This document shows, piece after piece, positions 1 to 53,784 of a stretch of DNA of 64,000 nucleotides (the first letter of the stretch is position 1; each line of letters begins with the position of its first letter). The notes beneath the pieces are model-generated. The model was not told the origin of the DNA, searched no databases, and was given only the letters and a program-made list of their open reading frames with translations. The stretch is from Actinomycetota bacterium (GTDB lineage: Bacteria > Actinomycetota > Geothermincolia > Fen-727 > Anoxymicrobiaceae), in assembly GCA_018831265.1 (NCBI GenBank), contig JAHJCO010000059.1, positions 76,708 through 140,707 of the forward strand, read 5' to 3'. A program made the position numbers and the translations under genes.

Positions 1-2584
1 AAGCCACACAGTGGGCGGGGATGCGGACATGTTCGTCACCTGGGGCTCAGCAGATACGGGGAAAGCCGTCAGCGGCGTGTCCTTCATCAAGCCCGGTACC
101 GACGCCGGCCACGCCGTCGCCGTCGGTCCGGACGGCAACCCGGTGGTGGTGGGGACGACGTCAAACGGCTCGGACCTGGACCTGTACGCGGGCAAGTTCC
201 CCGCGGCGGGCGCCGGCACCGAGCTGTGGAAGATCCAGCTCGACGGCGGTGGCAACGACGTGTTGAACGGGGTCGCGGTCGGCGCCGACGGTAACCCCGT
301 GCTGGTGGGCCGCGTTTACGAAAGCGCGTCCGGTGACGACAACATCTGGATACGGTGCGTCGACGGGCAGAACGGGACGATGGTCTGGCAGCGGACCGTC
401 GACAGCGGAAAGGGAAACGACGTCGCCGACGCCGTGGCCGTGGGGCCCGACCTCTGCCCCGTGGTGGTGGGGGAGTACAACAGCGGGAGCACCATGGACA
501 TCTGGGTGCGCAAGTACGACGGCCAGGGGAACACGCTCTGGACCAGCATCATCCCGGGCGCCGTCGGCCACGACGCCGCCACGGGCGTTGCGATCGGCCT
601 GGACGGGGACCCCGTCGTCTGCGGTTACCTGCACAACGGGGCGGACACCGACACCTGGGTGATGAAGTACGATGGGCAGAACGGGCAGTCGCGCTGGTCG
701 AGGCTCATCGACAGCGGCAAGGGCTGGGACCAGGCCTTCGGCGTGGCGATCGGGCCGGACGGCAACCCGGTGGTAAGCGGCCACTTCGAGAGCGGGACCT
801 CGTGGGACCTGTGGGTGAACAAGTTCAGCGGCGCCACGGGCGGCACGGTCTGGAACCGCCTCACCAAGGGAGGGGTCGAGTGCAGCGGGCGCTCCATCTG
901 CTGCGATGCGACCGGAAACGTGATAGTCGCCGGGTACTGCACTGTGGGCACCACAAAGGATCTGATCGTCAAGAAGTACCCACCCGGTAAGTACACTTCA
1001 ATGACCACCGTCGGGTTCAAGAAGCCGGTGGAGAAGCAGGGCCAGGCGCTCTCGGGTTTCATGGAGAAGCCGGGCGCGAAGCACAAGGGGTCGGTCATCT
1101 ACCAGCTCTCCTCGAACGGGAAGGACTGGTACTACTACTCGAACGGCTGGAAGAAGGCCGCGGGCCCGGCGCAGTCCAACAGCGCCGGCGAGGTCGACCT
1201 GAGGATCGGCGACTTCGACCAGACCGCGGCATCGAAGCTGTACCTGCAGGCGTTCCTGCAGTCGAGCGGACTGGAGCAGGTGGAGCTGGACGCGGTCACG
1301 GTCTACCTGTCTCCGCCGGTCCCCAGCGGCAACAACGACCAGTGGTACCTGGCCGAGGGTTCGACCAACTGGGGGTTCTCGACCTACATCACGGTGCTGA
1401 ACCCCAACCCGAGCGCGGTGAACGCCGAGATAACCTACATGACCGGGACCGGCGCGGTGAGCGGCGGGACGGTCACGATGCCGGCGATGAGCCAGGCGAC
1501 CATAGACCCGGCGCAGGTGGTTCCCGCCACCGACTTCTCTACCAGGGTCCGCTGCGTGGAGGGCCTGCCGATAGCGGTCGACAGAACCATGTCCTGGACC
1601 GGAACGGGCGCCGCGGCCCCCGAGAGCCACTCGTCCATCGGGGTCACCTGGCCGAGCTGCGCGTGGTGCATGCCCGAGGGCTCCAGCGCCTGGGGCTTCG
1701 AGACCTGGACGCTCGTGCAGAACCCGAACCAGATCAACGCGCAGGTCAGCATAACCTACATGATGGAGAACGAAGCCCCGGTCATGGTGAACGATACGCT
1801 CCCGCCGCTCTCCCGGAGGACCTACAGCATGAAGGATCACATCGGGGAGAAGGACGCCTCCATCAAGGTGACCAGCGACGTCCCGGTCATCCCCGAGCGT
1901 GCCATGTACCGCAACAACCGGCGTGAGGGGCACGAGTCGATCCCCTGCGAGCTGCCCGGGTACGATTACTACCTGGCCGAGGGCTCTACCGCATGGGGTT
2001 TCACCACCTACCTGCTTATCCAGAACAACAACAAGGGGACGGCGGACGTAACGGTCACCTACATGACGTCGAACGGTCCGGTGATCCAGCCGACGTTCCA
2101 GATGCCCATGAGCTCCCGGAAGACGATAAGGGTGAACGATGTGCTCCCGAACGCGGACTTCTCCATCAAGGTCAGTTGCCCCGGCACGATAATAGCCGAG
2201 CGGGCCATGTACTGGAACTCGCCCACAGGCGAGGTGTGCCACGACTCGGTGGGGACAGCCGACGCACACACAACCTACCACCTGCCCGACGGCGATACCA
2301 CCAACGGAATCGAGACCTGGACCCTGGTCCAGAATCCCAACGGGAGCGACGTACAGGTAGAGGTGCAGTACCTGACGCCGGACGGCAAGGGCAACAAGTC
2401 GTTCACCGACACCGTACCAGCCAACTCCCGAAGGACATACTCGATGGCCGACCACATCACAAACGGGCGGGCAGGCATAGTGGTTACCTCGAAGACGGCG
2501 GGCGCGAAGATCATCGTCGAGAGGTCGATGTACTCCGACGGCCGGCAGGCCGGCACCGATACCATCGGGGGTTACAGGGACTGA
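1..2584 (+). CDS. Secreted repeat protein, 5'-partial (runs off window start): ~55-aa beta-propeller-like repeats followed by 4 copies of the ~110-aa 'YLAEG' module
   Basis: Frame is open to nt 2; no signal peptide, unlike the paralogs; repeated 'GVAVGPDGNPVV.G' blocks; four modules with WYLAEGST.WGF / LVQNPN / TYMT / ERAMYWN / GHDSIG motifs; paralog of 18080-20728, 50911-53784, 60341-61921. Confidence 0.75.
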   Translation, partial: SHTVGGDADMFVTWGSADTGKAVSGVSFIKPGTDAGHAVAVGPDGNPVVVGTTSNGSDLDLYAGKFPAAGAGTELWKIQLDGGGNDVLNGVAVGADGNPVLVGRVYESASGDDNIWIRCVDGQNGTMVWQRTVDSGKGNDVADAVAVGPDLCPVVVGEYNSGSTMDIWVRKYDGQGNTLWTSIIPGAVGHDAATGVAIGLDGDPVVCGYLHNGADTDTWVMKYDGQNGQSRWSRLIDSGKGWDQAFGVAIGPDGNPVVSGHFESGTSWDLWVNKFSGATGGTVWNRLTKGGVECSGRSICCDATGNVIVAGYCTVGTTKDLIVKKYPPGKYTSMTTVGFKKPVEKQGQALSGFMEKPGAKHKGSVIYQLSSNGKDWYYYSNGWKKAAGPAQSNSAGEVDLRIGDFDQTAASKLYLQAFLQSSGLEQVELDAVTVYLSPPVPSGNNDQWYLAEGSTNWGFSTYITVLNPNPSAVNAEITYMTGTGAVSGGTVTMPAMSQATIDPAQVVPATDFSTRVRCVEGLPIAVDRTMSWTGTGAAAPESHSSIGVTWPSCAWCMPEGSSAWGFETWTLVQNPNQINAQVSITYMMENEAPVMVNDTLPPLSRRTYSMKDHIGEKDASIKVTSDVPVIPERAMYRNNRREGHESIPCELPGYDYYLAEGSTAWGFTTYLLIQNNNKGTADVTVTYMTSNGPVIQPTFQMPMSSRKTIRVNDVLPNADFSIKVSCPGTIIAERAMYWNSPTGEVCHDSVGTADAHTTYHLPDGDTTNGIETWTLVQNPNGSDVQVEVQYLTPDGKGNKSFTDTVPANSRRTYSMADHITNGRAGIVVTSKTAGAKIIVERSMYSDGRQAGTDTIGGYRD

Positions 2585-16472: not shown

Positions 16473-17916
16473 CGGTCCTCGGGACCGGCTGGACAGGGTC
16501 TTCAAGCCGCGCTCCGTCGCGTTCTACGGGGCGTCCAACGACCCGCTCACCATGGGGACCGGCCAGCTCGCCAACCTCATCCTCCAGGGGTACCAGGGAG
16601 CCATCTACCCTGTCCACCCCACCGAGCAGACCGTGCTGGGCCTGCCGGCCTACCCCGACATCGAGCACGTCCCGGAGACCCCCGACCTGGTGGTGATGGT
16701 CCTGCCCACCGGGATAGTGGCAAGGCTGCTGGACGACTGCGGGCGCGCGGGGGTGCGGGCGGCGGTGGTGGTGTCGGGCGGGTTCCGCGAAGTGGGTGGG
16801 CGCGGGGTGGAACTGGAGCGGGAGCTGGCCGAGGTGGTGGAGAGGCACGGGATAGCCCTCATCGGGCCGAACTGCATCGGGGTATCCAACTTCCACGTCG
16901 GTCTGAACACGACCTACTTCCCCTATCAGCAGGAGCCCGGCGGGGTGACGATCATCAGCCAGAGCGGGACCTACTCCTGCCACGTCTACGGGTTCACACG
17001 GAAGCTGGGCGTGCGCCTGAGCCATACCGTGAGCGTGGGCAACTCGCTGGCGACCGACCTCGCCGACTGCATCCGCTACTTCGCCGACGACCCCGAGACC
17101 AGGGTGATCGCGCTCTACATAGAGGGTATCCCCGAGGGGGAGAAGTTCATGGAGGCGGCGCGCTACGCGGTGGCGAGGAAACCCGTGGTGGCGCTGTACG
17201 TGGGCGGGACCGGCGCCGGGGCCCGGGCCGGGATGTCCCACACGGGCGCGATGGCGGGGGACGACGACATCTACTCCGGGATGCTGCGCCAGGCGGGCAT
17301 CCTGCGCGCATATACGATTGAGGAGATGCTGGACTGGTCCTGGGCGCTGGAGACGCAAACGCCCCCGCGGGGCAGGCGCACCTGCGTACTGACCAACTCG
17401 GGGGGCCCGGGGGCCAGCATGGCCGACACCTGCGTAAGGGCCGGGCTGGAGGTGCCGGTGCTCTCCGACGGCCTGCAGGAGAAGCTGCGCGTACACCTGC
17501 CGTTCACCGCGGCGAGCGTGAACCCGGTGGACATCACCTTCCACATGAACATCAAGGACATCTACGACCGGCTGCCCCGCCTGCTGCTGGAGAGCGGCGA
17601 GATAGACGGCATAGTGATGTACGGGGCGTTCGGCTCGATGCTGTTCCGCATGATGCAGGAGGCGATGGGGGAGCGCGTCCAGTACCCGGTGGAGCGGGTG
17701 GCGCCGATTATCCTGGAGATGGTCCAGCGGTTCACGGGCCTGCCGGGCGAGTACGGCATGCCGATCGTGATGTCATCGTTCTGGGGGCGCGACGACGAGG
17801 CCCTCGAGTACATGTCCGACCACGGCATCCCGGTGTACCCCAGCCCCGAGCGCGCGGTGATGGCCATGGCCGCCCTCTACCACCGCGGCACCGTCCTCGA
17901 CAAGGCCGTTGACTGA
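16459..17916 (+). CDS. CoA-binding acyl-CoA synthetase (NDP-forming)-family protein (alpha-domain type)
   Basis: 'VAFYGASNDP' CoA-binding Rossmann start; 'IGPNCIG', 'SQSGTYSCHVYG'; probable GTG start within the lon 3' end. Confidence 0.65.
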   Translation: MKVPSGPRDRLDRVFKPRSVAFYGASNDPLTMGTGQLANLILQGYQGAIYPVHPTEQTVLGLPAYPDIEHVPETPDLVVMVLPTGIVARLLDDCGRAGVRAAVVVSGGFREVGGRGVELERELAEVVERHGIALIGPNCIGVSNFHVGLNTTYFPYQQEPGGVTIISQSGTYSCHVYGFTRKLGVRLSHTVSVGNSLATDLADCIRYFADDPETRVIALYIEGIPEGEKFMEAARYAVARKPVVALYVGGTGAGARAGMSHTGAMAGDDDIYSGMLRQAGILRAYTIEEMLDWSWALETQTPPRGRRTCVLTNSGGPGASMADTCVRAGLEVPVLSDGLQEKLRVHLPFTAASVNPVDITFHMNIKDIYDRLPRLLLESGEIDGIVMYGAFGSMLFRMMQEAMGERVQYPVERVAPIILEMVQRFTGLPGEYGMPIVMSSFWGRDDEALEYMSDHGIPVYPSPERAVMAMAALYHRGTVLDKAVD

Positions 17917-18079
17917 AAGTCCCCGAAAGCCGGATCCAAGGTCTCACACACTGACTGGCGACTCAATATCGCCTGCAATGCTGTGCTGCACGCGGCTACG
18001 GCAGCGCTCGCTGCCTGTGGTTACCGTGCCGTCCGTTTGTGAGATGGCGCTATGAGATTGGGTCTGACCCCTCGGTGTG

Positions 18080-20728
18080 TCAGTCGCTGAAGCCACCGAT
18101 GGTCTCGGTGCCCGCGCCCCTGTCGTTCCAGTACATGGCGCGCTCGACCATTATCTTCTTGCCGGTGGAGGTGCAGTTGACCAGCACCGCCGCCCGCCCG
18201 CTGGCTATCTTGTCCGCCATGTTGTACGTCTTGCGCGAGTTGGCCGGTATTGAGTCGGTGAACGTCTGGTTGCCTGTCCCGGTGGCTGTCAGATAAGTGA
18301 TGGTTATGTTGACCGCGCTCCCGTTGGGGTTCTGCACCAGGGTCCAGGTCTCCCTGCCGTTCGATGTCTCGCCGTCCGGCAGGTAGAACGCCTGGTGGGG
18401 CGACGCCATCCCGATGGAGTCGTGGCACGCCTCGCCGGTGCCCTTGTCCCAGTACATGGCCCTCTCCGCGATGATGGGCTCGGTGCCGTGCACCTTGGTG
18501 GAGAGGTCCACCCCCGGCTTGACGTCGTTCACCCTGATGGTCTTGCGGGAGTTCGCCGGCATCTGGAAGACGTCCTGCGGGTCCGGGCCTTCGGTCGTCA
18601 TGTAGGTCACCGTCACGTCCACCGCGGTGCTGTTGGGGTTCTGGATCAGGACAAAGGTGGTGAAGCCCCACGCCGTGGTGCCCTCGGCCAGGTAGTAGTC
18701 GGTGGCCGGCGAGGTGGTCCCTATGGAGTCGTGCCCCTCGCGGCGCGAGTTGCGGTACATGGCGCGCTCAGGGATCACCGGCACGTCGGACGTCACCTTA
18801 ATCGATGCGTCCTTGGCGCCGATGTGTTCGGCCATGTTGAAGGTCTTACGCGTGCCCCCGTCCACCACCACGTCGAACTCCCGGGGGTCGGCCCCCTCTA
18901 TCATGTAGGTGATGGTGCAGTTGGCATCGGCGCTGTTGGGGTTCTGAATGAGCAGCCAGCACTCGAAGCCCCACTCCGATGAGCCTTCCGCCAGGTACCA
19001 GGTTGTGGCCGGCGCGGTCACCCCCACCGAGTTGTGGGACTCCTCGGCAACGGCTCCACCGTTTGTGCCAGCGCCGGCTCCACCGCCTGTCCACCTCATG
19101 GTGCGGTCAACCGCTATCATCTTTCCCTGGGCGCAGGACACCCTGGTGGAGAAGTCAGTGGCGCCCAGCACATCGGCCGGATTGATGGTGGTCTGGGAGT
19201 TGGCCGGCAGGTTGAAGTCCCCTCCGTCCACCGGGCCACCGGATGTCTGGTAGTCGACCGCGGCGGTGACCGCGGTGCTGTTGGGGTTCTGGATGGTTAT
19301 GTAGGTGGAGAACCCCCAGGCGGTGGTCCCCTCCGCCAGGTACCAGCTGTAGTAGTCGGTGGACATGTGCTGGGCGTACAGGTCGAGGTTGCCCACCCCG
19401 CTGTACTGCACCGGGAAAGCCATTATGGCGCCCCCGTACCCGTCCGGTATCATGTCCATCCAACCTGAGTCGTCCGCCACCCCGAATACCGCCTCCCCGT
19501 TGGTCTTCCAGCGCGCCAGGCCGCTGGAGGTGATGCTCTGCGCGTACCACTGGAGGCCCACCCGGCTGTCGTTCCAGGACACTATGGCCCCGCCGCTTCC
19601 GTCTCCACATATCTCCGGGTCTTCAATGTTCCAGTTCCCGGATACCAGCTGTACCCCTCCTGCCGTCCACTGCGCGCTTCCCGAGGAGTCAATGCGCTGG
19701 GCGTATACGGCCATCTTGGAGGGCAGCAGCCTTCCGTCCTCCCAGCTCACTATGGCCCCGCCGCTTCCGTCCGCCACTATCACCGGGTCGGACCCTGCGT
19801 GCAGCCCTACCCCCTGCGCGGTCCAGGCCGCCGCGCCCGCTGCTGTCACCCTCTGGGCACGAACATTCGAGCTGCCGACCGACCAGGACATGATGGCCCC
19901 GCCCCCCGAGTCCGGGATCATGTGCAGGTCATCGCAGTCGCCCAGGTTGCACATGAGCACGCCGTTGGCAGTCCATTTCATGTTGCCGCTGGAGTCCGCC
20001 TTCTGGCAGTAGACGTGGGTGTCGGCGCCGCTCCTCAGGTCGTCCCAGGAGAACACTGCCCCACCTGAGCCATCCGCCACCACGTTCGCGTAGCGCTGGG
20101 TCCCTGCCGCGGTGCAGACCGCCTTGCCCGCAGCTCCCCACCTGCGGGTGCCGCCGGAGTCGAGGCGCTGGGCGTATATATCGTCGGAAGCCCCGCGGGT
20201 ATCGCCCCAGGCGATTATCGCCCCACCGGAGCCATCAGTGGCTATGTCCCCGTTCAGCTGCTCGTTGGCCAGGTCGTTACTGACCAGGATACCGTTTGCC
20301 GCCCACTGGGCCACTCCGTTAGAGTTTATCCTCTGGGCATAGACGTGCTGGTTGAACAATGGACCGTCCGACCATATTATTACCGCTCCGCCGGAGCCGT
20401 CCGACACGATTGTGGGATACTCCTGCGTGCCTGCCGCGTTGCAGATGGGCACGCCGCTGGCTGCCCACTTCTTCGCCCCGCTCGCGTCTATGCGCTGTGC
20501 GTATATGTCGCTGTCGCCGGTGCGCATGTCGCCCCACACCATTATTGCGCCGCCTTGCCCGTCCGGGATCGTCTCAGGGTCCTCCTGGTCCCCGGCGGCG
20601 GTGCAGACCGCCTTGCCGTTGGTGCCCCAGCGCTGCACCGCGGCCATGGCGGAGGTTGCGGTGAGCAGGCACACCAGTAGTGCGGCCAGCGTCACGAAGA
20701 GAAGTGAACGGACGGTGAAGCGAGACAT
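18080..20728 (-). CDS. Secreted repeat protein: signal peptide, ~9 copies of a ~48-aa repeat (W..NG..VC.AAG.Q..P.IV.DGSGGAIV.W.D.R...DIYAQRI), then 4 'YLAEG' modules
   Basis: Start ATG at 20728 with AGGGGG RBS (track ORF extends to 20785); signal peptide MSRFTVRSLLFVTLAALLVCLLTATSAMA. Confidence 0.8.
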   Translation of the reverse strand: MSRFTVRSLLFVTLAALLVCLLTATSAMAAVQRWGTNGKAVCTAAGDQEDPETIPDGQGGAIMVWGDMRTGDSDIYAQRIDASGAKKWAASGVPICNAAGTQEYPTIVSDGSGGAVIIWSDGPLFNQHVYAQRINSNGVAQWAANGILVSNDLANEQLNGDIATDGSGGAIIAWGDTRGASDDIYAQRLDSGGTRRWGAAGKAVCTAAGTQRYANVVADGSGGAVFSWDDLRSGADTHVYCQKADSSGNMKWTANGVLMCNLGDCDDLHMIPDSGGGAIMSWSVGSSNVRAQRVTAAGAAAWTAQGVGLHAGSDPVIVADGSGGAIVSWEDGRLLPSKMAVYAQRIDSSGSAQWTAGGVQLVSGNWNIEDPEICGDGSGGAIVSWNDSRVGLQWYAQSITSSGLARWKTNGEAVFGVADDSGWMDMIPDGYGGAIMAFPVQYSGVGNLDLYAQHMSTDYYSWYLAEGTTAWGFSTYITIQNPNSTAVTAAVDYQTSGGPVDGGDFNLPANSQTTINPADVLGATDFSTRVSCAQGKMIAVDRTMRWTGGGAGAGTNGGAVAEESHNSVGVTAPATTWYLAEGSSEWGFECWLLIQNPNSADANCTITYMIEGADPREFDVVVDGGTRKTFNMAEHIGAKDASIKVTSDVPVIPERAMYRNSRREGHDSIGTTSPATDYYLAEGTTAWGFTTFVLIQNPNSTAVDVTVTYMTTEGPDPQDVFQMPANSRKTIRVNDVKPGVDLSTKVHGTEPIIAERAMYWDKGTGEACHDSIGMASPHQAFYLPDGETSNGRETWTLVQNPNGSAVNITITYLTATGTGNQTFTDSIPANSRKTYNMADKIASGRAAVLVNCTSTGKKIMVERAMYWNDRGAGTETIGGFSD

Positions 20729-20967
20729 CTTATACCCCCTGTTCGAAGCCTGCAGCCCTGATGGTGAATACATCACAACCGACATCTCCCCGTTTGTCTT
20801 CCTGACACAGCGATTCTACCCCTTTCCCTATCGATCTTCGCATCTTCATCACCAATTCCACCGCCTGCTCCGCCTCAGCCTATCACCTGGGACTTCCGGG
20901 GCGGGCGAGTAGGCATCAAGGTCATTGCACTTCAAATGAATTGAATCTGACCTGACCCCCGGTTGAG

Positions 20968-22224
20968 TCATTCCCAGGCGTCTGGGCGGGAGCGGATCTC
21001 GCCGCCCACGACCTCCTCGATCCCGTGATACAGGCCGGCGATTATCCCCTCGAGGTTCCGCAGGCGCTCGGAGAGCAGGTTGCGCGATACGGCGTTGAAC
21101 GCCTTCATCTCCTCGGCTATCAGCCCCGGTGTGGGTATCGGTGCCCCCCTCGGGCGCATCAGGAAAGAGGCAACCCGCAACGATGACGGCGGAGGCGGGC
21201 TCTCCCACGGTTTCAACGGGGGGATAAACAGGTGCGGGAAAGCGAGGGTCTGCGTTGGCATCGCCTCAGCGACCTCCATGAGCCCCATGAGCTTCTTGAG
21301 GGCGCTCAGCATCGCCCTGGGGTTGGAGGTCATCTTCGATGCCAGGGTATCCGCGAATAGGGTCTCGTTGTGCCCGGGGCCCTGGACGTTCATGTCGGCA
21401 AGCTCGGATTCTTCCGGCAGTGACTTCGGCTGCCCCGTCCAGATCGAGAAGGCCGTCGCGCCCCGGACCCTCTGGTAGTAGGTGAGCTGCTTCCATGGCA
21501 TGTACGGCTGGACGATTATCCCCAGCCAGAGCGGCGCCACAGGGATGACGAACAGTGGGAGCATCGCGACGAACGGGTTGTTGAGCGCTATCGCGACCGC
21601 CACGGGGAGCAGTAAGGCGACGAGCGTGACCAGAACCAGTGTCCTGGGCTTCAGGGCGATCGGTGCCTTCAGGCCGGTGTGCGCCGCGATGTGAGCCACC
21701 TGGTGGGCCATCACCACCTCGACCTCCGGGCCGCTCAGCTTCGCGTCAAGCATCTCCGGCGTGACTCCTACGGCGGGCCTGCCGCCCACCTCGAAGGTCA
21801 GCGCGTTCGCCGTCGGCATCCCGACCGGGACCACGTGCGGTGGCCTCACCCCCGCGGCGATGGCCGCCGCCTCAGCCGCCTCCTGGAACAGGTGTAGCCG
21901 GTGGCGGTCGTAGGTCGGGGTCCCGCGACTCAGTGAGCGGTACTGCTGGACCAGCGGTTTCAGGACGGCGAAGTAGTAAGCGGCGGGGAAGAGGATGGCC
22001 AGTATCCCAACGATGAGGAGTGGCTCGGCCACGACGGCCCAGCCTATGTTACTGTGCCCGTACCTTCCCGTGATCGAGCTGAGCCTGAACGCGTTGAACA
22101 CCTGGTAGCCGATGATGAGGAGTATCGGCACGAGTGGCAGCAGGGCCAGGCCGACGCGCAGCCGCGCCCTGTTCCTGTACTTCCTGAGGCTCTTCTCGAT
22201 CTGCGGCTCGAACTTCACCGGCAC
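20968..22224 (-). CDS. Membrane M48/M56-like peptidase homologue with degenerate HExxH (HQVAH)
   Basis: Several TM helices; 'VVMAHQVAHIAAH' in place of HExxH; downstream 'ETLFADTLAS' third-ligand-like region; paralog of 22254-23399. Confidence 0.5.
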   Translation of the reverse strand: MPVKFEPQIEKSLRKYRNRARLRVGLALLPLVPILLIIGYQVFNAFRLSSITGRYGHSNIGWAVVAEPLLIVGILAILFPAAYYFAVLKPLVQQYRSLSRGTPTYDRHRLHLFQEAAEAAAIAAGVRPPHVVPVGMPTANALTFEVGGRPAVGVTPEMLDAKLSGPEVEVVMAHQVAHIAAHTGLKAPIALKPRTLVLVTLVALLLPVAVAIALNNPFVAMLPLFVIPVAPLWLGIIVQPYMPWKQLTYYQRVRGATAFSIWTGQPKSLPEESELADMNVQGPGHNETLFADTLASKMTSNPRAMLSALKKLMGLMEVAEAMPTQTLAFPHLFIPPLKPWESPPPPSSLRVASFLMRPRGAPIPTPGLIAEEMKAFNAVSRNLLSERLRNLEGIIAGLYHGIEEVVGGEIRSRPDAWE

Positions 22225-22253
22225 CCCCCCGCCACCCCAACGGGCGTACTATT

Positions 22254-23399
22254 CTACAACGCGGTCCCCCCGACCGCCCGCCCGCCCCTCTCGAACGCCA
22301 TCCACCTGCCCTCTTCTATAGCTTCCAGGTTCGCGATGCGCTCGGCGACCAGCCCCTTGCCCCAGGCGGACAGTTCTTCGAGGTTGGTCGTCATGCGGGC
22401 GGCACGGCTCTGCACCGAGGCGTCGCTCCACTTGAGGCCGAGCTCGTCGCGCTGACGGCGCAGGAGATCTTGCGGCGTCTCGCTCCAGCGGTACGGCGGC
22501 ATGAACATGTGATCCAGGCCCATGTCGTTGACCGGCAGAGGGGAGTCCTTCGCGTTGTTGACCAGCGAGTCGAGCTTCTTGACAGCATCCAGCAGCGGAG
22601 CCGGCTCGCCGGTCAGGCGGACCGCGATGGAGTCCGCCAGGATGTCGTCGTGCCCGCGGGCGTTCCTTCGCTTCTTGTTGAAGAAGACCATGAGCAGGAG
22701 GGCCATCCACAGGATGAACCCCACCGCTACCGCGACCAGGGGCCTGCCGCCGCTCCCCGCCATGGGGACCGCGAACAGGGCGAGGGCGGTGTAGAGGGCG
22801 AAAAGCCCGGTGATCAGCGCGTCGGGGGTTATCGGCCCGGGGCGCGCCAGGTAGTCGCCGGCGAGAATACCGCCCAGCTCGTGGGCCATTATCGCCCCGA
22901 CCTGCGCGTACGTCAGGTCCGCCTCGAGGGCGGCGACCGTCACGCCGATCTCCGGCCCGCCATCGGCCTCGAACGCCAGGGCGTTGGGCCGATCACCCCT
23001 GATCACCTTCACCCGAGGCGCGGGTACCCCGGCCTCCTCGCTGACCTGGTCCAGCGTATTGAGAAACCGCCCGAGCTTCGCGATGTCGAAGCCCCCCGCG
23101 CCCACGGTCAGCGCGCCGAATGCGGCTCCGTCACGGATGATGGACGGGACGTAGAAGGTCACCATGCCGACGAGGAAGAGGACCAGCACCACCAGCGCGG
23201 CGATGAGGAGCGCCGTGCGCCCGCCCGTGCCCCGCACCAGCGGGCTGAACGTGGTGTTGCCGGCCGCGTAGGGTACGATGACGAGAACCATCACCAGCAC
23301 GATCATGAGCGACAGGACCGCCAGCATCGCCCGGCGGGCGAGCAGGGCCCTTCGCCGGTATCGCTTTATGGCTTGCTTCACGTCGGGATTGAGGCTCAC
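22254..23399 (-). CDS. Membrane M48/M56-like peptidase homologue with degenerate HExxH (HELGG)
   Basis: 'AIMAHELGGILAGD'; 'GHDDILADSIA'; TM helices; paralog of 20968-22224. Confidence 0.5.
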   Translation of the reverse strand: MSLNPDVKQAIKRYRRRALLARRAMLAVLSLMIVLVMVLVIVPYAAGNTTFSPLVRGTGGRTALLIAALVVLVLFLVGMVTFYVPSIIRDGAAFGALTVGAGGFDIAKLGRFLNTLDQVSEEAGVPAPRVKVIRGDRPNALAFEADGGPEIGVTVAALEADLTYAQVGAIMAHELGGILAGDYLARPGPITPDALITGLFALYTALALFAVPMAGSGGRPLVAVAVGFILWMALLLMVFFNKKRRNARGHDDILADSIAVRLTGEPAPLLDAVKKLDSLVNNAKDSPLPVNDMGLDHMFMPPYRWSETPQDLLRRQRDELGLKWSDASVQSRAARMTTNLEELSAWGKGLVAERIANLEAIEEGRWMAFERGGRAVGGTAL

Positions 23400-23417
23400 G
23401 ATATGAGTCTAACAGTT

Positions 23418-23461
23418 TCGCATCGGGGTCAGACGCCGATGCGAATGGGGTCAGGCTGGGC
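23418..23461. repeat. REP-like hairpin, variant loop (TTCGCATCGG-GGTCAGAC-GCCGATGCGAA) plus GGGGTCAGGC half-site
   Basis: Identical hairpin at 31097-31125. Confidence 0.8.
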
Positions 23462-23573
23462 CTCCATCATGGTGGAGAGCCTCACCAGCGGCAAGGAAGT
23501 CATGTGCGAGAGGGCCATGTACTGGAACTCGAGGGGAGCGGGCACGGACACCATCGGAGGGTATGCGGAATGA
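23444..23573 (+). pseudogene. C-terminal remnant of a 'YLAEG'-module protein
   Basis: Encodes ...SGKEVMCERAMYWNSRGAGTDTIGGYAE*, matching the last ~35 aa of the paralogs (ERAMYWN..GAGTDTIGG); no upstream domain or start. Confidence 0.55.
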
Positions 23574-23745
23574 AAGAAAACCTCAGCACGTCTTGTTGCA
23601 CTCGATCCGGCCATAATGAAAGAAGACCTCAGCACGTCTTGTTGCGCTCTTCGAGTCCGATCGACCTGTTGTCACAGTGCAAGAAGATGTCTGAGGTATT
23701 GTTTCATTCATCGGTGAAAGAAATGGTCTGAGGTTTTCTTTCACT
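23571..23745. repeat. AT-rich palindromic repeat cluster, family 3 (GAAAGAANACCTCAGACCATTTCTTTC and variants)
   Basis: Direct and inverted copies; same family at 30019-30093 and 56091-56207. Confidence 0.7.
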
Positions 23746-24532
23746 ACAGGTGGCTGAGGATCTTACTGAAGAAGTCCTGGGTTCGGGGGTGCTTCGGGTT
23801 GTTGAAGATCTCGGTCGGGTCGCCGTCCTCGACGACCAGTCCCTCGTCCATGAAGATCAGCCGGTCGCCGACCTCACGAGCGAACCCCATCTCGTGGGTG
23901 ACCACGATCATGGTCATCCCCTCGCGGGCCAGGTCCTGCATGGTGTCCAGGACCTCCTTGACCAGCTCGGGGTCGAGCGCGCTCGTCACCTCGTCGAACA
24001 GCATCACGTCAGGCTCCATGGCCAGCGCCCGCGCGATGGCCACGCGCTGCTGCTGGCCCCCGGAGAGATGGGCCGGGAAAGCGTCCGCCTTGTCCCCGAG
24101 CCCGACCTTCCCCAGCAGCTCGACCGCCTTGACGTTCGCCTCCTCCTGCGAGATGCCCCGTACCTTGAGCGGGGCGAGCGTCACGTTCCTGATGGCCGTG
24201 AGGTGCGGGAAGAGGTTGAAGGACTGGAAGACCATACCCACCTTCTCACGGACCTTGTTGATATCCGTGGCCCGGTGGGTCACGTCCACGCCCTCTATGT
24301 AGATGTGCCCTCGCGTGGCGTGCTCGAGCCCGTTTATACAGCGGAGCATGGTGCTCTTGCCGGACCCGCTCGGCCCCACCACGACCACCACCTGCCGGGG
24401 AAGAACCTCCAGGTCGATCCCCTTGAGCGCGTCGAAGTCGCCGAACTTCTTGTGCAGGCCCTCGATCTTTATCATGGGCTCGCCCGGCTTCAACTCCATC
24501 GGCGGCTCGTCGCCGTCGCGGTGGTCGGCCAT
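23744..24532 (-). CDS. Amino-acid ABC transporter ATP-binding protein
   Basis: Walker A 'GPSGSGKST', signature '[15 protein letters not shown]', Walker B '[11 protein letters not shown]'; ATGA overlap with the permease gene. Confidence 0.9.
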
Positions 24533-33238: not shown

Positions 33239-33993
33239 TGCGACGCAACGGTAAGTACACATCGATAGCCATAGCGCTCCTCCTGGCCGCGGCGCTCGCG
33301 GCGGGCGGCTGCGGGGAGCAACCTTCACTGGCCTACGATTCTTCCGGCGGGAACGTGGTGGTGCAGGTGGAATCCGGCGGGGGGCTGGCGCCCTTCTACC
33401 TCGACACCGTGCCTTCCTTCCGCGCCTTCGGTGACGGTCGGGTCGTGAAAGCGGCGGACGATACCAGGAACAACAGCCTGCTACTGGAAGGAACGCTGGG
33501 GGACGGCGGGGTGGAGGGCCTGCTCGAGAGCATCGAGAAGGCGGGGTTTTTCGACCTGAAGGATTCCTACCGCGACGACAGGGTGATGGACGGGGTCACC
33601 GTGAGCGTCACCGTTTCGCTGAAAGACGGGAGGAAGAAGGTAGACGTCTACATGACCGAGGTGCCGGAGTTCGCCGCCACGCTGAAGGCCGTCAATGGAT
33701 TCCCGGTCACGGGCGAACACCCCTACGTCCCTGAAGAGGGGTATCTCTACGTCACCCGGCAGAACGAGCCGCCGAAGGACCCTCGGGTCCCACCGGACGA
33801 CATCGCCGCCCTGATACCCGGGGTACAGATACTCGAGCCGGCCGATTCCGCCAACGAGCCCGTGGTGGTCCCGGGCGGGGAATTCGTGAAGATAAAGGAG
33901 TGGGAGGTGACGCAGAAGTATTCGGGCCTGGACGTGCTGTCCGGAGGGACATGGTTCAAGGTCTACCCGGTGTACGAGAAGCGCGAGTACTAG
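33239..33993 (+). CDS. Lipoprotein, function unknown
   Basis: Signal peptide with lipobox 'LAAGGC'. Confidence 0.55.
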
Positions 33994-34070
33994 CGCGTAC
34001 GGACGCCCCGCGTGTCACTGGGACGGGCGATAATGATCGGTATGAAGAGACTCACGTCCCGGGAGTGTCT

Positions 34071-37000
34071 GTGAACTTCCAGAGCAACACCCTGGTCGAG
34101 GCCATCGCCTCGCTGTGCGCGGAAGAGCCGTTGAAGCCCAAGATCATAATCGCGCCCTCCAACCGGGCCGGGAACCAGTGGCTCGAGCGCGTCGCCATGT
34201 CGGGCCGTCCGGTCCTGAACGCCGGCTCCCGGACGCTCCGGGGGCTCGCCCTCGAGCTGTCCGCTCCCCTGCTGGTCGAGCGGGGGCTGCAGCTGGTGGG
34301 AGGCATCCGCGCACAGGTTCTGATGGACAGGGCCTTCGCCCGTATCTCCCCGAAAGAGCCTTACCTGTCTCGTCTCGAGCCGGGGCCGGGCCTGGTCCGC
34401 ACCCTGCTCGGAGCCGTGAGGGACCTTCGCCTCGCCGGGCTGGATGCGGACGCCGTCGACGAGCGCGCGTTCGAGGTGAGGTCCAAGGGCGCCGAGGTGA
34501 AGGCGCTCCTCGAGGCGTTCGAATCCGTGCTGGCGGAGGGCGGCTTAACCGACTACGCAGGGTGTCTCCGCCTTGCCGTCGAGCGCGTCACCTCCGATAG
34601 AGGGCTCCCGCTCGACTCCCTTGTGGCGATCCCCGCGGACCTCGAGGAGCGCCTGGCGGGCCTCGAACGCTCTCTCTGGTCGGCGATGCCTGAGAGCAAC
34701 CGTCGCATACTCGAGGTGGACCTGCCCGGCGACCCGAGCACCGACTCCTCGCGTCGTTACATGCTGAGCTTCGCCCTGCACCCCCAGACCGCGCCCGACC
34801 CCGGGCCGGACGGCGGCGGAGTCAGGATGTTCCGCGCGGTGGGCGAGGTCAACGAGGTCCGAGAGGTCTTCAGGCGGGTCGTCGAGGAGGGCCTGCCCTT
34901 CGACGACGTCGAGGTGTTGTACACCGAACCGGCAACGTACCTCCCGCTCCTGTTCGAGCTGGCCTCCCGCCAGGCGGCCGACGGGTCCGATGAGCTCCCG
35001 GTGACCTTCCTGGAGGGCGTCCCCACCCGGTACTCGAGGCCCGGAAGGGCACTGGCCGGGTGGCTGGAGTGGGTGAGGGGGGGCGATCTCCCCCAGGGTA
35101 CGCTGGTCCGCATGGTCCACGACGGGTTGCTCGAGATACCCGCGGTCGAGGGCGGCGATCTGAGCTTCGCGAGGCTGGGCGCGATACTACGGTCGGTGGC
35201 GATCGGGGCCGGGCGCGAGAGGTACCTGGCCTCGCTGGACTCGGAGGCCCGCGCCCTGACCTCGCAGATCGTGGGGCTGGACGAGGCGGAGGAGGAAGGG
35301 CGCGACGCGCGGAGACGTATCGGCCTCTCGGAGCGCCTGGAGGGCCTGGGCGCGCTGCGCGAGCTCATCGGCGGCCTCCTCGAGGTAGTCCCTTCCACCG
35401 GTGGGCAGGCGGAGGCGCTCAGCTCCGCGTCGCTGTTCCTCGAGAGGTACGCGAGGCACTCGGGGAAGTTCGACGAGTACAGCAGGGTGATACTGCTCGA
35501 CTCGGTGGCCGAGATCGAGCGGTGCCTCCAGGACGGCGAGGTTGCCGGCTTCGAACCCTGGAGCTGGCTCGATGAGGTGATCTCCTCGATCAGCGTCGAG
35601 GGATCGGGGCCTGCCCCGGGCCGGCTGCACACGGCCCCTGTGGACAAAGGCGGTCATTCCGGCCGCGGGCACACGTTCATCGTCGGCTTCGACGAGGCCC
35701 GGTTCCCCGCCGCGGGCAGGCAGGACCCCGTTCTGCTGGATGGCGAGAGAGAGCGGCTGTCGGACGATCTGCTCACGGGAGAAGCGAGGCTCACGCGCGA
35801 GCTGGAGCAGCTGATGCTGCTGTTCGCCCGGTTGAGGGGCGAGGTGACCTTGAGCTACTGCTGCCGGAGCCTCATCGACGATCGCGAGCTGTTCCCGAGC
35901 CCGGTGCTGCTGTCCGCCTACCGCGTGCTGGAGAAGCGCGACGGCGACCAGCAGGACCTGAACGCATACTGCGGGGACCCGGTCTCTTTCGCGCCGGCGT
36001 CGCCGGAGAGCGCCATCGACACCACCGAGTGGTGGCTTTCTCTCGCGTGCGGTCGGACCGACCGGCTGGTCCCGACCGGACTGGTCGTGGCGAGTTTCGG
36101 CCACCTGGGGCGCGGGATGAGGGCGCGCGAGATGAGGGAGAGCCCGGAGTTCACCGAGTACGACGGCTACGTGCCCGAGGCCGCCTCGGAGTGCGATCCC
36201 GCGCGCGAGGGGGCGAGGCCGCTCTCGGCGTCCGCCCTCGAGGAGCTCGCGAGGTGCCCGCTGGAGTATTTCCTCCACCGTGTCCTGCGCATAGATCCGC
36301 TCGAGGAGTACGAGATCGACCCCAACGAGTGGCTGGACGCCAGGCAGGTCGGCCACTTTCTCCACGGCTGCTTCAGGATCTTCCTCGAGCGCCTGGACGA
36401 GCGGGGCGAGCGCCCGAGCCGGGACGCCCACCTCGCCGAGCTGCGGCGCCTGTTCGACGATGAGCTCGCATACTGGCGGCGCGTGGTGCCTCCACACAAC
36501 GAGGCTTCCTACAAGGCCCAGGCCAGGATGCTCGAGCGCGCCGCCTGCATCTTCCTGACGGAGGAGGAGCTGCACTGCGTCGACAGGCGGCCTGCGTACT
36601 TCGAGGTCTCGGTGGGTCGGATGCCCGACCTGCCCGGGAGGCGAGGCAACGAGATAGACACCGCCGAGCCCGTGCTTGTCTCCCTGCCGAAGGGGATGGT
36701 CTTCCGCGCCCACGGGCAGATGGACAGGGTGGACGAGCTCCCTGGCGCACCCGAGGGCCGTCGCTTCGAGGTCTGCGACTACAAGTCGGGCGGCGCCGGC
36801 CGGTACGACGTCAACGACCCGTTCGCCTGCGGCCGTCACGTGCAGAACATCCTGTATACGCTGCTCCTGCAGAGCAGGCTCGACGAGCTCTTTCCGGGCG
36901 CGCGCGTAGAGGGTTTCAGCTACTACTTCCCCAGCCTGTACGGAAGGGGTGAGCGGGTGGGATGGACCATGGATGAGCTCGAGGCGGGGGAGACGGTCCT

Positions 37001-46079: not shown

Positions 46080-46535
46080 ATGCGGCGCAGGAGTACGTCC
46101 GGGACGCTCTTCACCATAGGGTACGAGGGTCTGAGCCCTGGTGACCTGGTGAAGACACTGCGGCACAACGGTGTCGAGCTCGTCTTAGACGTCCGCCAGC
46201 GGGCCTCCAGCCGCAAGGCCGGTTTCTCCAAGTCGGTCCTGAAGTCCAACCTGGAGAAGCACGGGATAAGCTACCAGCACTTCCCCGAGCTCGGCAGCCC
46301 ACCAGACCTGCGAAAGAAGTACAACGCCGACGGTGACCGCGCCTACTTCATCCGGCACTACAGGAACTCGCTCGAGGGCAAGGGTTCCATCCTGCAGGAG
46401 TTGGCCAACCTCGCCTCGACGATGCCGGTCGCGCTGGTCTGCTACGAGGCCGACCCGGGCCATTGCCACCGCTCGATCGTGGCCTCCGAGATGGCCCGCC
46501 TGTCGACGCCCGCCCTCCAGGTCCAGGACCTGTAA
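46080..46535 (+). CDS. DUF488-family protein
   Basis: 'TLFTIGYEG...VLDVRQ...GISYQHFPELG' DUF488 pattern. Confidence 0.65.
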   Translation: MRRRSTSGTLFTIGYEGLSPGDLVKTLRHNGVELVLDVRQRASSRKAGFSKSVLKSNLEKHGISYQHFPELGSPPDLRKKYNADGDRAYFIRHYRNSLEGKGSILQELANLASTMPVALVCYEADPGHCHRSIVASEMARLSTPALQVQDL

Positions 46536-46599
46536 AGGGAGACCGGCGCCCTTGACGGAACATATTTCCAACGGGCAGTGGCTTGCAAAGGGGGTAGGA

Positions 46600-50910: not shown

Positions 50911-53784
50911 TTGACCACCCAGGGGGGCGGCCCTATCATGGCGACAAGAAGCCGTACCGAGCATCCCTGGAGGAACGCCGTGAAGAGAAGCATCGCCGCC
51001 GCCCTGCTGACCGTGCTGATCTGTGCCGTCGCCGCGCCGGCGATGGTGCTGACACCGGCGATTGCGGGGCAACCGGCGGGTCCGGCCGTTCCGCGGCCCG
51101 GGCGGTACGCGCCCGGCGAGGTGCTGGTCAGGTTCAGGGAGCCGGTGGGAGCGGGGGCGGTCGAGAGCGCGCTGACGGGACTGGGGGCCAGGCGGGCGAA
51201 GCGCCTCACCGTGAGCGGCATCGAGCTGCTGGAGGTGCCGGGCGGGGTCGAGGAGGCGATCGAGGCGTTGCGGGCCTCGGGGCTCGTCTACTACGCGGAG
51301 CCGAACTACGTGCGCAGCGTCGACTTCACCCCCAACGACACCGATTTCGACAAGCAGTGGAACCTCCACGATACGACGCCGGTGGACGCCGATATTAACA
51401 TGCCCGCCGCCTGGGACATCGAGACAGGGTCGCCGGGCGTGGTGGTGGCGGTGCTGGACACCGGGATCGCCTACCGCGACGGCGGTGGCTTCCATAAGGC
51501 GACTGACCTGGACACGACCGCTTTCACCCAGGGCTATGACTTCATCAACGACGACCAGTACGCCGACGACGACCACGGACACGGCACGCACGTCGCGGGC
51601 ACCGTGGCGCAGAGCACTAACAACAACTTCAGGGTGGCCGGCGTGGCGTTCGGGTGCACACTCATGCCGGTGAAGGTGCTGGACGGCGAGGGCAGTGGCA
51701 CTGACGTCGAGCTCATCCAGGGTCTTGAGTTCGCCTCCACCCACGGGGTCGAGGTCGTGAACATGAGCCTGTCCGGCCCGGAGCCCAACGCCGCGCTCGA
51801 AGAGGCTCTGAGGCTCGCCCGGAGCCGCGGGACGCTGCTGTGCGCCTCGTCGGGAAACGACGACGACCCGCTGGTAGGGTACCCGGCGGCCTACCCTTCG
51901 TGCGTCGCGGTGGGCGCTACAAACAAGAACAAGAACAGGTCTTCGTACTCGAACTACGGCAGCGAGCTGGACGTCTGCGCCCCGGGCGGTGATGGGCACC
52001 TGTTCGCTCAAGGCATCATCCAGGAGACGTACCAGACCCTGGGTAATCCATCAAGCCCGTTCGTCGAGGTTTCGATGCAGGGCACCTCCATGGCCTGCCC
52101 CCACGTCGCGGGCGTGGCGGCCCTGGTGCGGTCCGAGCACACCACCTGGACGGTGGACGAGGTCACCGGGGCCATCAGCTCGACATGCAGGGACATCGGA
52201 GCGGCCGGCTGGGACAACGAGACCGGCTGGGGCCTCATCGACGCGGAGGCGGCCCTGCTGGCCCCCAGGCCGTCGGGGACCGGTCCCGCGATATCCTCGG
52301 TGACGCCCGACCACTCGGACACGGGGGCCGACGCGCATCTGACCATCACCGGCGCCAACTTCGCGACGCCGGCGAAGGTGGCGTTGCAGCGCGAAGGCGA
52401 GCTGGCGATCACCGGGACCGCCATCGCGGTGAGCGGCTCCACACGTATCGACTGCGACGTGGACCTCACCGGTGCCCAGGCCGGCCCATGGAACCTGGTG
52501 GTCGAGAACGACGACATGCTGGGCGACTCGCTGGACGGAGGGTTCGTGGCCGATCCTTCGATGAGTACGACCTGGTACCTGGCCGAGGGCTCGACCGCAT
52601 ACGGCTTCGAGGAGTACGTCCTCATACAGAACGCGGGCGGGACGCAGGCCAGCACTACGGTCACCTTCATGACCCCGGACGGGTCGCTGGACCCGCTGGC
52701 CGTACCGGTGCCCGCGCAGAGCAGGACCACCATCCGGGTCAACGACTTCGCATTGGACACCGACGTATCGACCAAGGTGACCTCCGATGCCGAGATAATC
52801 TGCGAGCGTTCCATGTACTGGGGCGGCAGGATCGAGGGCACGGACTGCATAGGGGTCGAGGCGCCCGCGTACTCCTGGTACCTGGCGGAGGGGACGACCG
52901 ACTACGGCTTCGACACCTACCTGCTGATACAGAACCCCCAGAGCAAAGTGGCAACCGTCTTCGTGACCTACATGACGCCGGAGGGCCCCGTCGAGAAGGC
53001 GCCTTTCGCCATGCCCCCCAACAGCCGCGAGACAATCGTGGTCTCGGAGGACCTGCCGGCCGAGGAGATGTCGTTCAAGGTGCTCTCGGACCAGAGGATC
53101 ATCGCCGAGCGTTCCATGTACTGGGACGGGATGCGCGGGGGGCACGACTCGATCGGCACCGTGACGCCGTCGGAGACCTGGTACATTGCCGAGGGCACGA
53201 CCGACTGGGGCTTCGACGAGTACGTGCTGCTGCAGAACCCGGGCTCCGAGAACGCGACCGTGACGCTCACCTACATGACGCCGGAAGGCCCGGTTCCGCA
53301 ACCGCCGGTGACGGTCGATGCGGGTACCCGTCAGACCATCCACGTGGACGACGTCCTGCCTGCCGAGGACGTCTCGGTGAGGGTGGAGTCCGACGTCGGG
53401 GTCATCGCCGAGCGCGCGATGTACTGGAACAACGGGACCGGCAAGGCCGGGCACTGCGCGATCGGGGTCCTGCAGTCCAGGCAGGAGTGTTTCCTGGCCG
53501 AGGGCACCACCGACTGGGGCTTCGACGAGTGGATACTCATCCAGAACCCGAACCCGGAGCCGGCGAACATCGGCGTCAAGTACATGACCCCGCAGGGCCC
53601 GGTGGACCGGGACGGCTTCGTGCTTGCGGGAAACAGCAGGGTTACCGTGCACGCCAACGAAGACCTGGTGCCGGCGAGCGATGCCTCGGCCTATGTCTTC
53701 TCCGACCGGCGGATAATCGCGGAGCGCTCGATGTACTGGAACGCCCGGGGCGGCGGCCACGTCTCCACCGGGATGATGAAGTAG
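50911..53784 (+). CDS. Secreted subtilisin-like serine protease (S8, with I9 propeptide) fused to IPT-like domain and 4 'YLAEG' modules
   Basis: Signal peptide; catalytic 'VLDTGI', 'HGTHVAG', 'GTSMACPH'; four C-terminal modules (WYLAEGSTAYGF..., WYLAEGTTDYGF..., WYIAEGTTDWGF..., FLAEGTTDWGF...). Confidence 0.9.
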   Translation: MTTQGGGPIMATRSRTEHPWRNAVKRSIAAALLTVLICAVAAPAMVLTPAIAGQPAGPAVPRPGRYAPGEVLVRFREPVGAGAVESALTGLGARRAKRLTVSGIELLEVPGGVEEAIEALRASGLVYYAEPNYVRSVDFTPNDTDFDKQWNLHDTTPVDADINMPAAWDIETGSPGVVVAVLDTGIAYRDGGGFHKATDLDTTAFTQGYDFINDDQYADDDHGHGTHVAGTVAQSTNNNFRVAGVAFGCTLMPVKVLDGEGSGTDVELIQGLEFASTHGVEVVNMSLSGPEPNAALEEALRLARSRGTLLCASSGNDDDPLVGYPAAYPSCVAVGATNKNKNRSSYSNYGSELDVCAPGGDGHLFAQGIIQETYQTLGNPSSPFVEVSMQGTSMACPHVAGVAALVRSEHTTWTVDEVTGAISSTCRDIGAAGWDNETGWGLIDAEAALLAPRPSGTGPAISSVTPDHSDTGADAHLTITGANFATPAKVALQREGELAITGTAIAVSGSTRIDCDVDLTGAQAGPWNLVVENDDMLGDSLDGGFVADPSMSTTWYLAEGSTAYGFEEYVLIQNAGGTQASTTVTFMTPDGSLDPLAVPVPAQSRTTIRVNDFALDTDVSTKVTSDAEIICERSMYWGGRIEGTDCIGVEAPAYSWYLAEGTTDYGFDTYLLIQNPQSKVATVFVTYMTPEGPVEKAPFAMPPNSRETIVVSEDLPAEEMSFKVLSDQRIIAERSMYWDGMRGGHDSIGTVTPSETWYIAEGTTDWGFDEYVLLQNPGSENATVTLTYMTPEGPVPQPPVTVDAGTRQTIHVDDVLPAEDVSVRVESDVGVIAERAMYWNNGTGKAGHCAIGVLQSRQECFLAEGTTDWGFDEWILIQNPNPEPANIGVKYMTPQGPVDRDGFVLAGNSRVTVHANEDLVPASDASAYVFSDRRIIAERSMYWNARGGGHVSTGMMK

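Follow-up and report, generated by a model that had tools for sequence, protein, structure and literature searches.

What is a tail of exactly four similar modules doing at the end of a secreted protein, and what does it carry? The locus that raises this question is gene B, in a stretch of 64,000 nucleotides (nt) of the Actinomycetota contig JAHJCO010000059.1; the whole of this stretch is the window, and all coordinates count from its start. A previous sequence-only reading had placed at 18080-20728 a gene with a signal peptide, N-terminal repeats and exactly four C-terminal 'YLAEG' modules. Both the gene and the number of modules were found as described: the product, of 882 amino acids (aa), is 100% identical to the protein KKF41_16275 (P0121) of an NCBI metagenome-assembled genome (MAG), labelled 'Actinobacteria bacterium', and the modules, of ~100 aa and starting at aa 462, 577, 678 and 781, continue up to the last residue. 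The four modules together, called here the tetrad, sit behind unrelated heads and are a common C-terminal module of the large and varied secretome of Geothermincolia. We consider it somewhat probable that the tail is a single-chain pseudo-tetramer which would anchor exported proteins by binding carbohydrate. The parts of gene B are the following.

18080..20728 (-): gene B, 882-aa secreted protein with signal peptide, predicted 8-bladed propeller and four-module ASRAH/DUF5719 tail; stop included
20639..20728 (-): signal peptide, aa 1-30, ...TSAMA|AV; helix at residues 4-29 in the AlphaFold2 (AF2) model
19346..20629 (-): propeller head, aa 34-461, from the blade alignment and the AF2 model
20629-20468, 20467-20306, 20305-20141, 20140-19976 (-): blades 1-4
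19975-19826, 19825-19670, 19669-19511, 19510-19346 (-): blades 5-8
19001..19345 (-): tail module 1, aa 462-576
18698..19000 (-): tail module 2, aa 577-677
18389..18697 (-): tail module 3, aa 678-780
18083..18388 (-): tail module 4, aa 781-882, reaching the C-terminus

The open reading frame (ORF) of gene B spans 18080..20785 (-), and the ATG at 20728, with a Shine-Dalgarno-like AGGGGG located 6 nt upstream, is the best start. The signal peptide is of Sec type with an AxA-type site (MSRFTVRSLLFVTLAALLVCLLTATSAMA|AV), and the lipobox L-[AS]-[GA]-C was not found in it. Full-length orthologs having the same head and the tetrad were found at 43-69% identity. Weak Pfam matches of the protein to DUF1491, Agarase_CBM and THBD (E 0.01-0.9) were dismissed as noise.

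At the DNA level the tail of B appears as a 112-nt core in four copies, with a spacing of 303-345 nt. The sequence-only reading had assigned the same four-module tail and a different head to the 5'-partial gene at 1-2584 (paralog A), which was borne out by the comparison of both genes: the heads are unrelated (best E 0.06) and the tails agree at 61.5% of protein and 67.6% of DNA positions. Whether the modules cluster by position had been set beforehand as a test, and they do. Between A and B, modules at positions 1, 2, 3 and 4 are 63, 58, 65 and 60% identical, while cross-position pairs reach 27-47%. When 46 proteins with their 184 modules were considered, identity was 54-60% at the same position and 29-38% across positions, and the nearest neighbour in another protein occupied the same position for 178 of the 184 modules, the exceptions lying in two further paralogs of the window, C and D. 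Judged by these identities, the four tail positions are orthologous across paralogs and diverged from one another.

The copy number is equally constant. Of the 337 relatives that were looked at, 273 contain exactly four modules. Exactly four modules were counted in all of the tail-bearing homologs (43/43) and in 94 of 102 ORFs from genome loci, several of the others being cut at the locus ends. A profile scan of 1.84 billion cluster representatives gave 7630 proteins at E ≤ 0.001, and among the best 146, which were inspected, 136 have exactly four modules and another seven carry eight, in every case split into two tetrads (4+4). In P0240 these are located at aa 59-481 and 1302-1733. Two separate tetrads are present in each of the eight-module metagenome proteins of the set P0240, P0241, P0333, P0248, P0254 and P0265, and in some eight-module proteins the first tetrad comes after the signal peptide and is separated by TIG arrays from the second, C-terminal one. 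The gene fragment P0246, with at least 7 equal modules of 114 aa, is an exception to the rule of four. The proposal of the sequence-only reading, that different heads are exchanged while a C-terminal scaffold of four copies stays constant, is valid well outside the window too, as seen from these module counts and from the Pfam census of heads given below.

The position of the tetrad in the protein is also nearly fixed: the C-terminus lies at most 5 aa past the tail in 43/43 homologs and in 139/146 cluster representatives, and the final residues follow a conserved consensus, ...MYWNxRGAGTDTIGGYSD. Rare tetrads that are not C-terminal were seen in L070 (5785-7824 (+)), P0286, P0312, P0335 and P0350, with 188-412 aa downstream of the tetrad; in P0350 this extra part is a lipocalin-like domain.

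The structure of the B tail was modelled by AF2 with a pLDDT of 93.4 and a pTM of 0.92, as four domains in one chain. Considering this pTM across four domains, the tail is predicted to be one compact body instead of beads on a string, with its packing confidently predicted. When the modules were compared with the PDB by Foldseek, they matched TM1070 of Thermotoga (1nc7, E 8e-7, probability 1.00; TM 0.75-0.77, target-normalised, with an rmsd of 2.3-2.5 over 112 columns) and ASRT, the sensory rhodopsin transducer of Anabaena (2ii7-2iia, probability 1.00), and nothing else convincing. According to the models, each tail module is an eight-stranded beta-sandwich with the TM1070/ASRT fold of the ASRAH superfamily, which was defined by De Souza, Iyer and Aravind, 2009 (PMC2739507).

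Sequence features of the superfamily agree with this fold. The hallmark Asn at the end of strand 2 is N20 of a QNPN motif, invariant in 16/16 modules of the window, and the hallmark aromatic at the start of strand 1, a conserved Trp in the superfamily, corresponds to the first residue of the 16 modules, which is mostly Trp (10 W, 3 Y, 1 F and 2 others). The Glu/Asp of YLAEG and the Arg of ERAMYW are likewise invariant across the modules. Three relatives bearing the same tetrad (P0240, P0248 and P0333) pass the Pfam cut-off for ASRT (PF07100), with 41.8, 53.9 and 32.1 bits vs 25. DUF5719 (PF18986), with a cut-off of 26.2 bits, was matched by the four tetrad proteins of the window, with 43.2 bits in B, 45.8 in A, 75.1 in C and 63.4 in D.

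The solo proteins provide the clue for the number four. TM1070 and ASRT form tetramers, in which a cleft of the subunit is partly walled by the dimer interface, and for other families of the superfamily, occurring 'either as dyads or as tetrads', homo- or hetero-tetramers were suggested (PMC2739507); sugars or peptidoglycan were predicted as ligands of the domains (PMC2739507). B shares with TM1070 (1NC7) and ASRT (2II7-2IIA; PF07100) the module fold (Foldseek probability 1.00, TM 0.72-0.78, ~20% identity), the conserved Asn after strand 2 and the strand-1 aromatic, and to the tetrameric state of the solo proteins correspond the four copies of its tail. It differs in that TM1070 and ASRT are cytoplasmic proteins of ~125 aa assembling into homotetramers, whereas B is exported and has its four copies, diverged from one another, in a single chain where a large head precedes them.

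Two other described groups can be compared with B. The amidase-ASRAH tetrads of Chloroflexi (Roseiflexus, Chloroflexus, Herpetosiphon) are, like B, secreted and have four tandem ASRAH domains (PMC2739507), and they are predicted to bind peptidoglycan elements, that is, to target the wall (PMC2739507). They are always fused to an N-acetylmuramoyl-L-alanine amidase, whereas B has no amidase domain and its host belongs to Actinomycetota; amidase was not among the 25 commonest of the 49 Pfam families matched in 85 tetrad heads. The actinomycete ASRAH dyads, in turn, are described with two domains, a lipobox Cys, N- and C-terminal extensions and a neighbourhood of WhiB, glycosyltransferase and inactive zincin genes (PMC2739507). 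Taking into account the taxonomy and a profile that spans two modules, we infer that Pfam DUF5719 corresponds to this dyad lipoprotein family. B resembles the family in its phylum, its extracytoplasmic location and the DUF5719 scores, above the cut-off in the four proteins of the window; in contrast, the domains of B number four, its signal peptide is of AxA type, and the gene stands beside Lon, CoA-binding, M48-like and ABC genes, its orthologs having still other neighbours.

Considering these relatives, a mechanism can be proposed. B would be exported via Sec as two rigid parts, head and tail, joined without a linker. The tail would be a single-chain and differentiated version of the homotetramer which the solo TM1070/ASRT proteins form. 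The tetrad would bind carbohydrate, most likely a glycan of the cell's own wall, and in this way keep the exported head attached at the cell surface. Geothermincolia would use it as a common C-terminal anchor for proteases, glycosidases, phosphoesterases, propellers and TIG arrays. In this proposal the geometry of the TM1070 tetramer, the sugar binding and the anchoring role are each what we infer; architecture, folds, orthology of the module positions, the constant number of four, C-terminal location, paralog expansion and variety of heads were established by computation, structure prediction included.

Several observations weigh against wall anchoring through carbohydrate binding. The modules of B itself match ASRT marginally at the sequence level (E 0.02-0.035): ASRT ranks first among PDB sequences for the profile of the 16 window modules, but with an E of only 0.035, and PF07100 is matched by one of the 16, with E 0.021. 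The signature SHEshChhN of the ASRT-like family, which holds the ligand-contacting His/Cys, is absent from the window modules and from B, where GF-x-T-x-x-L-I-Q-N is found, so any ligand must differ from that of the ASRT-like family. Glycosidase heads (GH5, GH39) fit equally well with a carbohydrate-binding module that targets a substrate. Finally, in the literature no paper was found that names 'DUF5719', and 'ASRAH' was found only in the 2009 paper (PMC2739507).

A more ambitious extension of wall anchoring seems to us possible rather than probable. According to it, the tetrad would be an unrecognised class of display module, a pseudo-tetrameric lectin serving as general wall anchor for the exported enzymes of Geothermincolia. 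It would then be the functional counterpart of SLH domains, of sortase signals or of the C-terminal domain of the type IX secretion system (T9SS), and the modules would always number four because cytoplasmic sensors of TM1070/ASRT type had passed on a closed tetrameric ring.

The compactness of the tail (pTM 0.92) can be read in another way, as that of a scaffold which self-associates or builds a lattice, such as an S-layer or a stalk, and displays the heads by protein-protein contacts in which no glycan takes part. Solo ASRAH proteins oligomerise, and with 7630 cluster representatives the family is abundant. Against this, there is no indication of chain-to-chain contacts, the four sites of the tetramer are already filled within one chain, and heads of very different size are hard to fit in a regular lattice; we regard the scaffold as improbable.

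In a scan of one genome per species at least 517 tail loci were confirmed, of which 79 were kept. Of the kept loci, 78/79 are labelled Actinomycetota, Candidatus Geothermincolia, Candidatus Anoxymicrobiaceae or uncultured bacterium, and one contig is labelled Planctomycetota; a few kept loci bear labels such as Acidimicrobiales or Acidimicrobium ferrooxidans. The paralogs expand to as many as 12 tetrad genes in one MAG among these loci, a minimum for that genome. Head length ranges from ~40 to >1500 aa, and an N-terminal hydrophobic segment is present in 151 of the 168 tetrad proteins that start with Met. Single-linkage clustering joined 69/92 heads through shared domains (e.g. TIG) and was discarded in favour of a Pfam census. 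In this census of 85 heads the families included TIG (26), S8 subtilase (9), calcineurin-like phosphoesterase (6) and propellers of Vgb-lyase type (5), and also BNR-type propellers, beta-helix, GH39, GH5, papain C1, sortilin and NHL. Some proteins, such as L079 (460 aa), have hardly anything besides a signal peptide and the tetrad.

Wall anchoring has one main competitor. The tetrad could be a carbohydrate-binding module that recognises a polysaccharide substrate in the environment and brings the head to it, which would agree with the predicted sugar binding of the superfamily (PMC2739507), with the heads of GH5, GH39 and right-handed beta-helix type and with the lectins and glycosidases found among the structural neighbours of the B propeller. 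However, the strongly conserved tail is also found on S8 and C1 proteases, on phosphoesterases, on proteins with TIG only and on the nearly head-less L079, and it is nearly always at the extreme C-terminus. Its identity to the tail of B is 62-68% in proteins with different heads and 55-69% in orthologs with the same head (one closer, 78%), and this similar conservation between different heads and between orthologs points to one shared partner, not to many substrates. We hold substrate targeting to be rather unlikely, and wall anchoring by carbohydrate binding stays as our preferred interpretation.

The head of B was characterised separately. The sequence-only reading had counted ~9 tandem repeats of ~48 aa; the tandem repeats are there, and the counts had to be changed to eight units of 50-55 aa (~53 aa) according to the D[GS]xGG anchors at aa 56, 110, 165, 219, 273, 320, 376 and 429. 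The blade motif can be written as W-x2-NG ... DGxGGAI-x2-W-x-D-x-R ... (D)IYAQR, and in the DNA of the head a periodicity of ~162 nt with its multiples is observed. Self-BLAST of the head gave no off-diagonal matches, with the real and the shuffled sequence alike; it was uninformative and was replaced by a comparison of aligned blades, whose mean pairwise identity is 39.0% vs 21.0 +/- 2.6% in 50 shuffles, above every shuffle. The AF2 model (pLDDT 94.2, pTM 0.91) has eight units, most of them four-stranded, so that the head is predicted to fold as an 8-bladed beta-propeller. The propeller-like nature attributed to these repeats is thus supported by the structure prediction, and the possibility that they were low-complexity artefacts is answered by the shuffles, by the model and by >6000 database proteins that match the head.

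The best structural matches of the B head in the PDB were propellers only. The nearest solved structures are CylK, hydrolases of GH145 type and PLL/PHL lectins, with a TM of at most 0.57 (query-normalised) and 10-16% identity; since these are generic propellers at low similarity, no function can be read from them. In Pfam and NCBIfam no model covers the repeat, and a propeller family of >6000 members lacking a model in both makes a family definition worthwhile. The best matches of the head outside Geothermincolia belong to Bacteroidota, Krumholzibacteria and WOR-3 and have heads of the same 8-repeat family as B, with 35-45% identity along 83-100% of the head length. These proteins differ from B in having a T9SS sorting domain (PF18962) or a FlgD-Ig-like domain (PF13860) where B has the tetrad. 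One or the other was present in about 74 of the 120 best head homologs (our own count), and in the consensus of the aligned homologs they are placed C-terminally, after the propeller. PF18962 was not matched in B, where the tetrad fills the C-terminus instead. This pairing of one head family with C-terminal domains specific of each lineage supports indirectly a surface-attachment role of the tetrad, which seems to fill a slot otherwise held by a surface-attachment domain.

The same slot could be occupied by a tetrad that is not a lectin. It would be then a C-terminal sorting or attachment signal for a dedicated machinery of export or ligation, analogous to the T9SS C-terminal domain or to sortase signals, and the strict C-terminal placement, the conserved final residues, the many paralogs per genome and the T9SS sorting domains carried C-terminally by most head homologs outside the lineage would fit with it. 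On the other hand, a rigid folded domain of ~420 aa is far above the size of any known sorting signal, no conserved partner gene was found beside the orthologs examined, in the eight-module proteins P0240 and P0241 a tetrad is found near the N-terminus as well as at the C-terminus, and the fold is that of a family which binds small molecules. We see little probability in such a signal; it and the self-assembling scaffold are both less likely than substrate targeting.

As to what was known, the ASRAH domain and the existence of secreted tetrads have been described since 2009. We found no literature on the tetrad as a common C-terminal module of the Geothermincolia secretome, on the position-specific divergence of the four copies or on the fusion to an unannotated family of 8-blade propellers, and the titles and abstracts of the literature mentioning Geothermincolia contain nothing on the tetrad family. 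If the wall anchor were true, it would name a surface-display system of an uncultured and deep-branching actinobacterial class, whose surface proteome would be readable from sequence as any protein ending in a tetrad; it would also give a structural reason for the occurrence of ASRAH domains in fours and a function for a Pfam family of unknown function with thousands of members. A rigid module of ~420 aa tolerating heads of ~40 to >1500 aa could moreover serve as a display scaffold. If the tetrad were an ordinary substrate-binding module, all this would amount to routine domain shuffling.

The window contains other members of the family, of which the sequence-only reading had passed over C, D and the module 4 relic, together with the DUF5719/ASRAH identity of the modules.

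2..2584 (+): paralog A, cut by the window edge; propeller-like head, ~115-aa middle region, four-module tail at 1343-2581
50938..53784 (+): paralog C; signal peptide, fervidolysin-like prodomain, S8 subtilase, TIG, four-module second-subtype tail at 52573-53781
60341..61921 (+): paralog D; signal peptide, TIG, four-module second-subtype tail at 60698-61918
23442..23573 (+): module 4 relic, last 43 codons and stop, between M48b and an ABC ATPase gene

In the head of paralog A (2-1342 (+)) six 'GVAVGPDGNPVV' repeats of ~52 aa are visible, with weak matches to the delta-60 and SBBP propeller repeat models, and the region of ~115 aa between repeats and tail has no family match. That the tails of A and B underwent gene conversion recently was considered and rejected on the basis of their 67.6% DNA identity, of third codon positions at ~55% and of a longest identical run of 18 nt. 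By these sequence comparisons, A and B are old paralogs with tails under purifying selection. The tails of C and D form a second subtype, 42% identical to the B tail and with TIG directly before the tetrad; their modules are less differentiated among themselves and are similar to those at position 3 in the first subtype. C encodes a complete S8 subtilase. The relic is 53% identical to the end of the B tail (tblastn E 1e-13). Another ORF of 400 aa, at 46333-47535 (+), has a TIG domain and no 'YLAEG' motif in a six-frame scan; it is perhaps a family member whose tail has been lost, perhaps unrelated.

The sequence-only reading had also drawn attention to two M48-like membrane proteins encoded upstream of B.

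20968..22224 (-): M48a, M48-like membrane protein, with HQVAH in place of HEXXH
22254..23399 (-): M48b, M48-like membrane protein, with HELGG in place of HEXXH
18032..20902 (no strand): segment absent from L084, comprising B and 174 bp upstream; variable slot, from blastn vs L084

Their location directly upstream and their orientation were correct: M48b, M48a and B lie on the same strand, separated by 29 and 239 bp. M48a and M48b are M48/HtpX-like proteins in tandem, 26% identical to each other; their Pfam M48 matches are weak (21.7 and 29.0 bits vs 20.3), and both are probably inactive given that an intact HEXXH is missing. For M48a, three homologs were found in a database of 5.8 billion proteins, itself included. 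A scan for promoters and terminators in 17800-23800 detected none between M48a and B, which neither supports nor excludes co-transcription.

It could be thought that B acts with these two proteins, for example as their substrate or partner. The arrangement of the three genes and the degenerate HEXXH of both proteins would suit this idea, as would the inactive zincin-like metallopeptidase in the operons of actinomycete ASRAH dyads (PMC2739507) and the presence of an M48-like gene within 6 kb in 2/79 tail loci. At those two loci, however, the M48-like genes are convergent with the tetrad genes and not co-oriented, and the B orthologs P0128 and P0134, on long contigs, have other neighbours and no M48. 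The clearest result came from L084 (JAZDFZ010000056.1), which is nearly syntenic with the window (protein identities: ABC 92-98%, M48b 92%, M48a 79%, CoA-binding 95.5%, Lon 97%). It keeps the order ABC-M48b-M48a-...-CoA-binding-Lon (79-98% identity), tblastn found no B-like sequence in it, and in the place of B there are two small genes, for a 147-aa protein and for a 215-aa NTP_transf_2 nucleotidyltransferase. The segment missing from L084 shows that B brings its own 174 bp upstream. A partnership with the M48-like proteins is therefore largely refuted and we consider it extremely improbable; the link of B to these neighbours is incidental, and the functional weight that could be given to it does not stand.

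Given that L084 has the M48 genes and lacks the segment of B, B is an accessory gene: the slot it occupies is variable, and its upstream region is its own. A remnant of 112 bp of the small-gene region of L084 (L084 11543-11653) is present at 17920-18031 of the window, 94% identical, and at the edges of the 18032-20902 indel no repeats were found beyond the internal repeats of the gene. The stretch 23458-23747, around the module 4 relic, is also absent from L084. With B in a variable slot and the relic in a second stretch missing from L084, tetrad genes seem to be gained and lost rapidly.

Elsewhere in the window, two large adjacent genes at 33900-40684 (+) are an AddAB-like helicase-nuclease pair (a PD-(D/E)XK nuclease; a UvrD helicase with PD-(D/E)XK), followed by a NERD/UvrD_C protein at 41522-43204; these are ordinary housekeeping genes.

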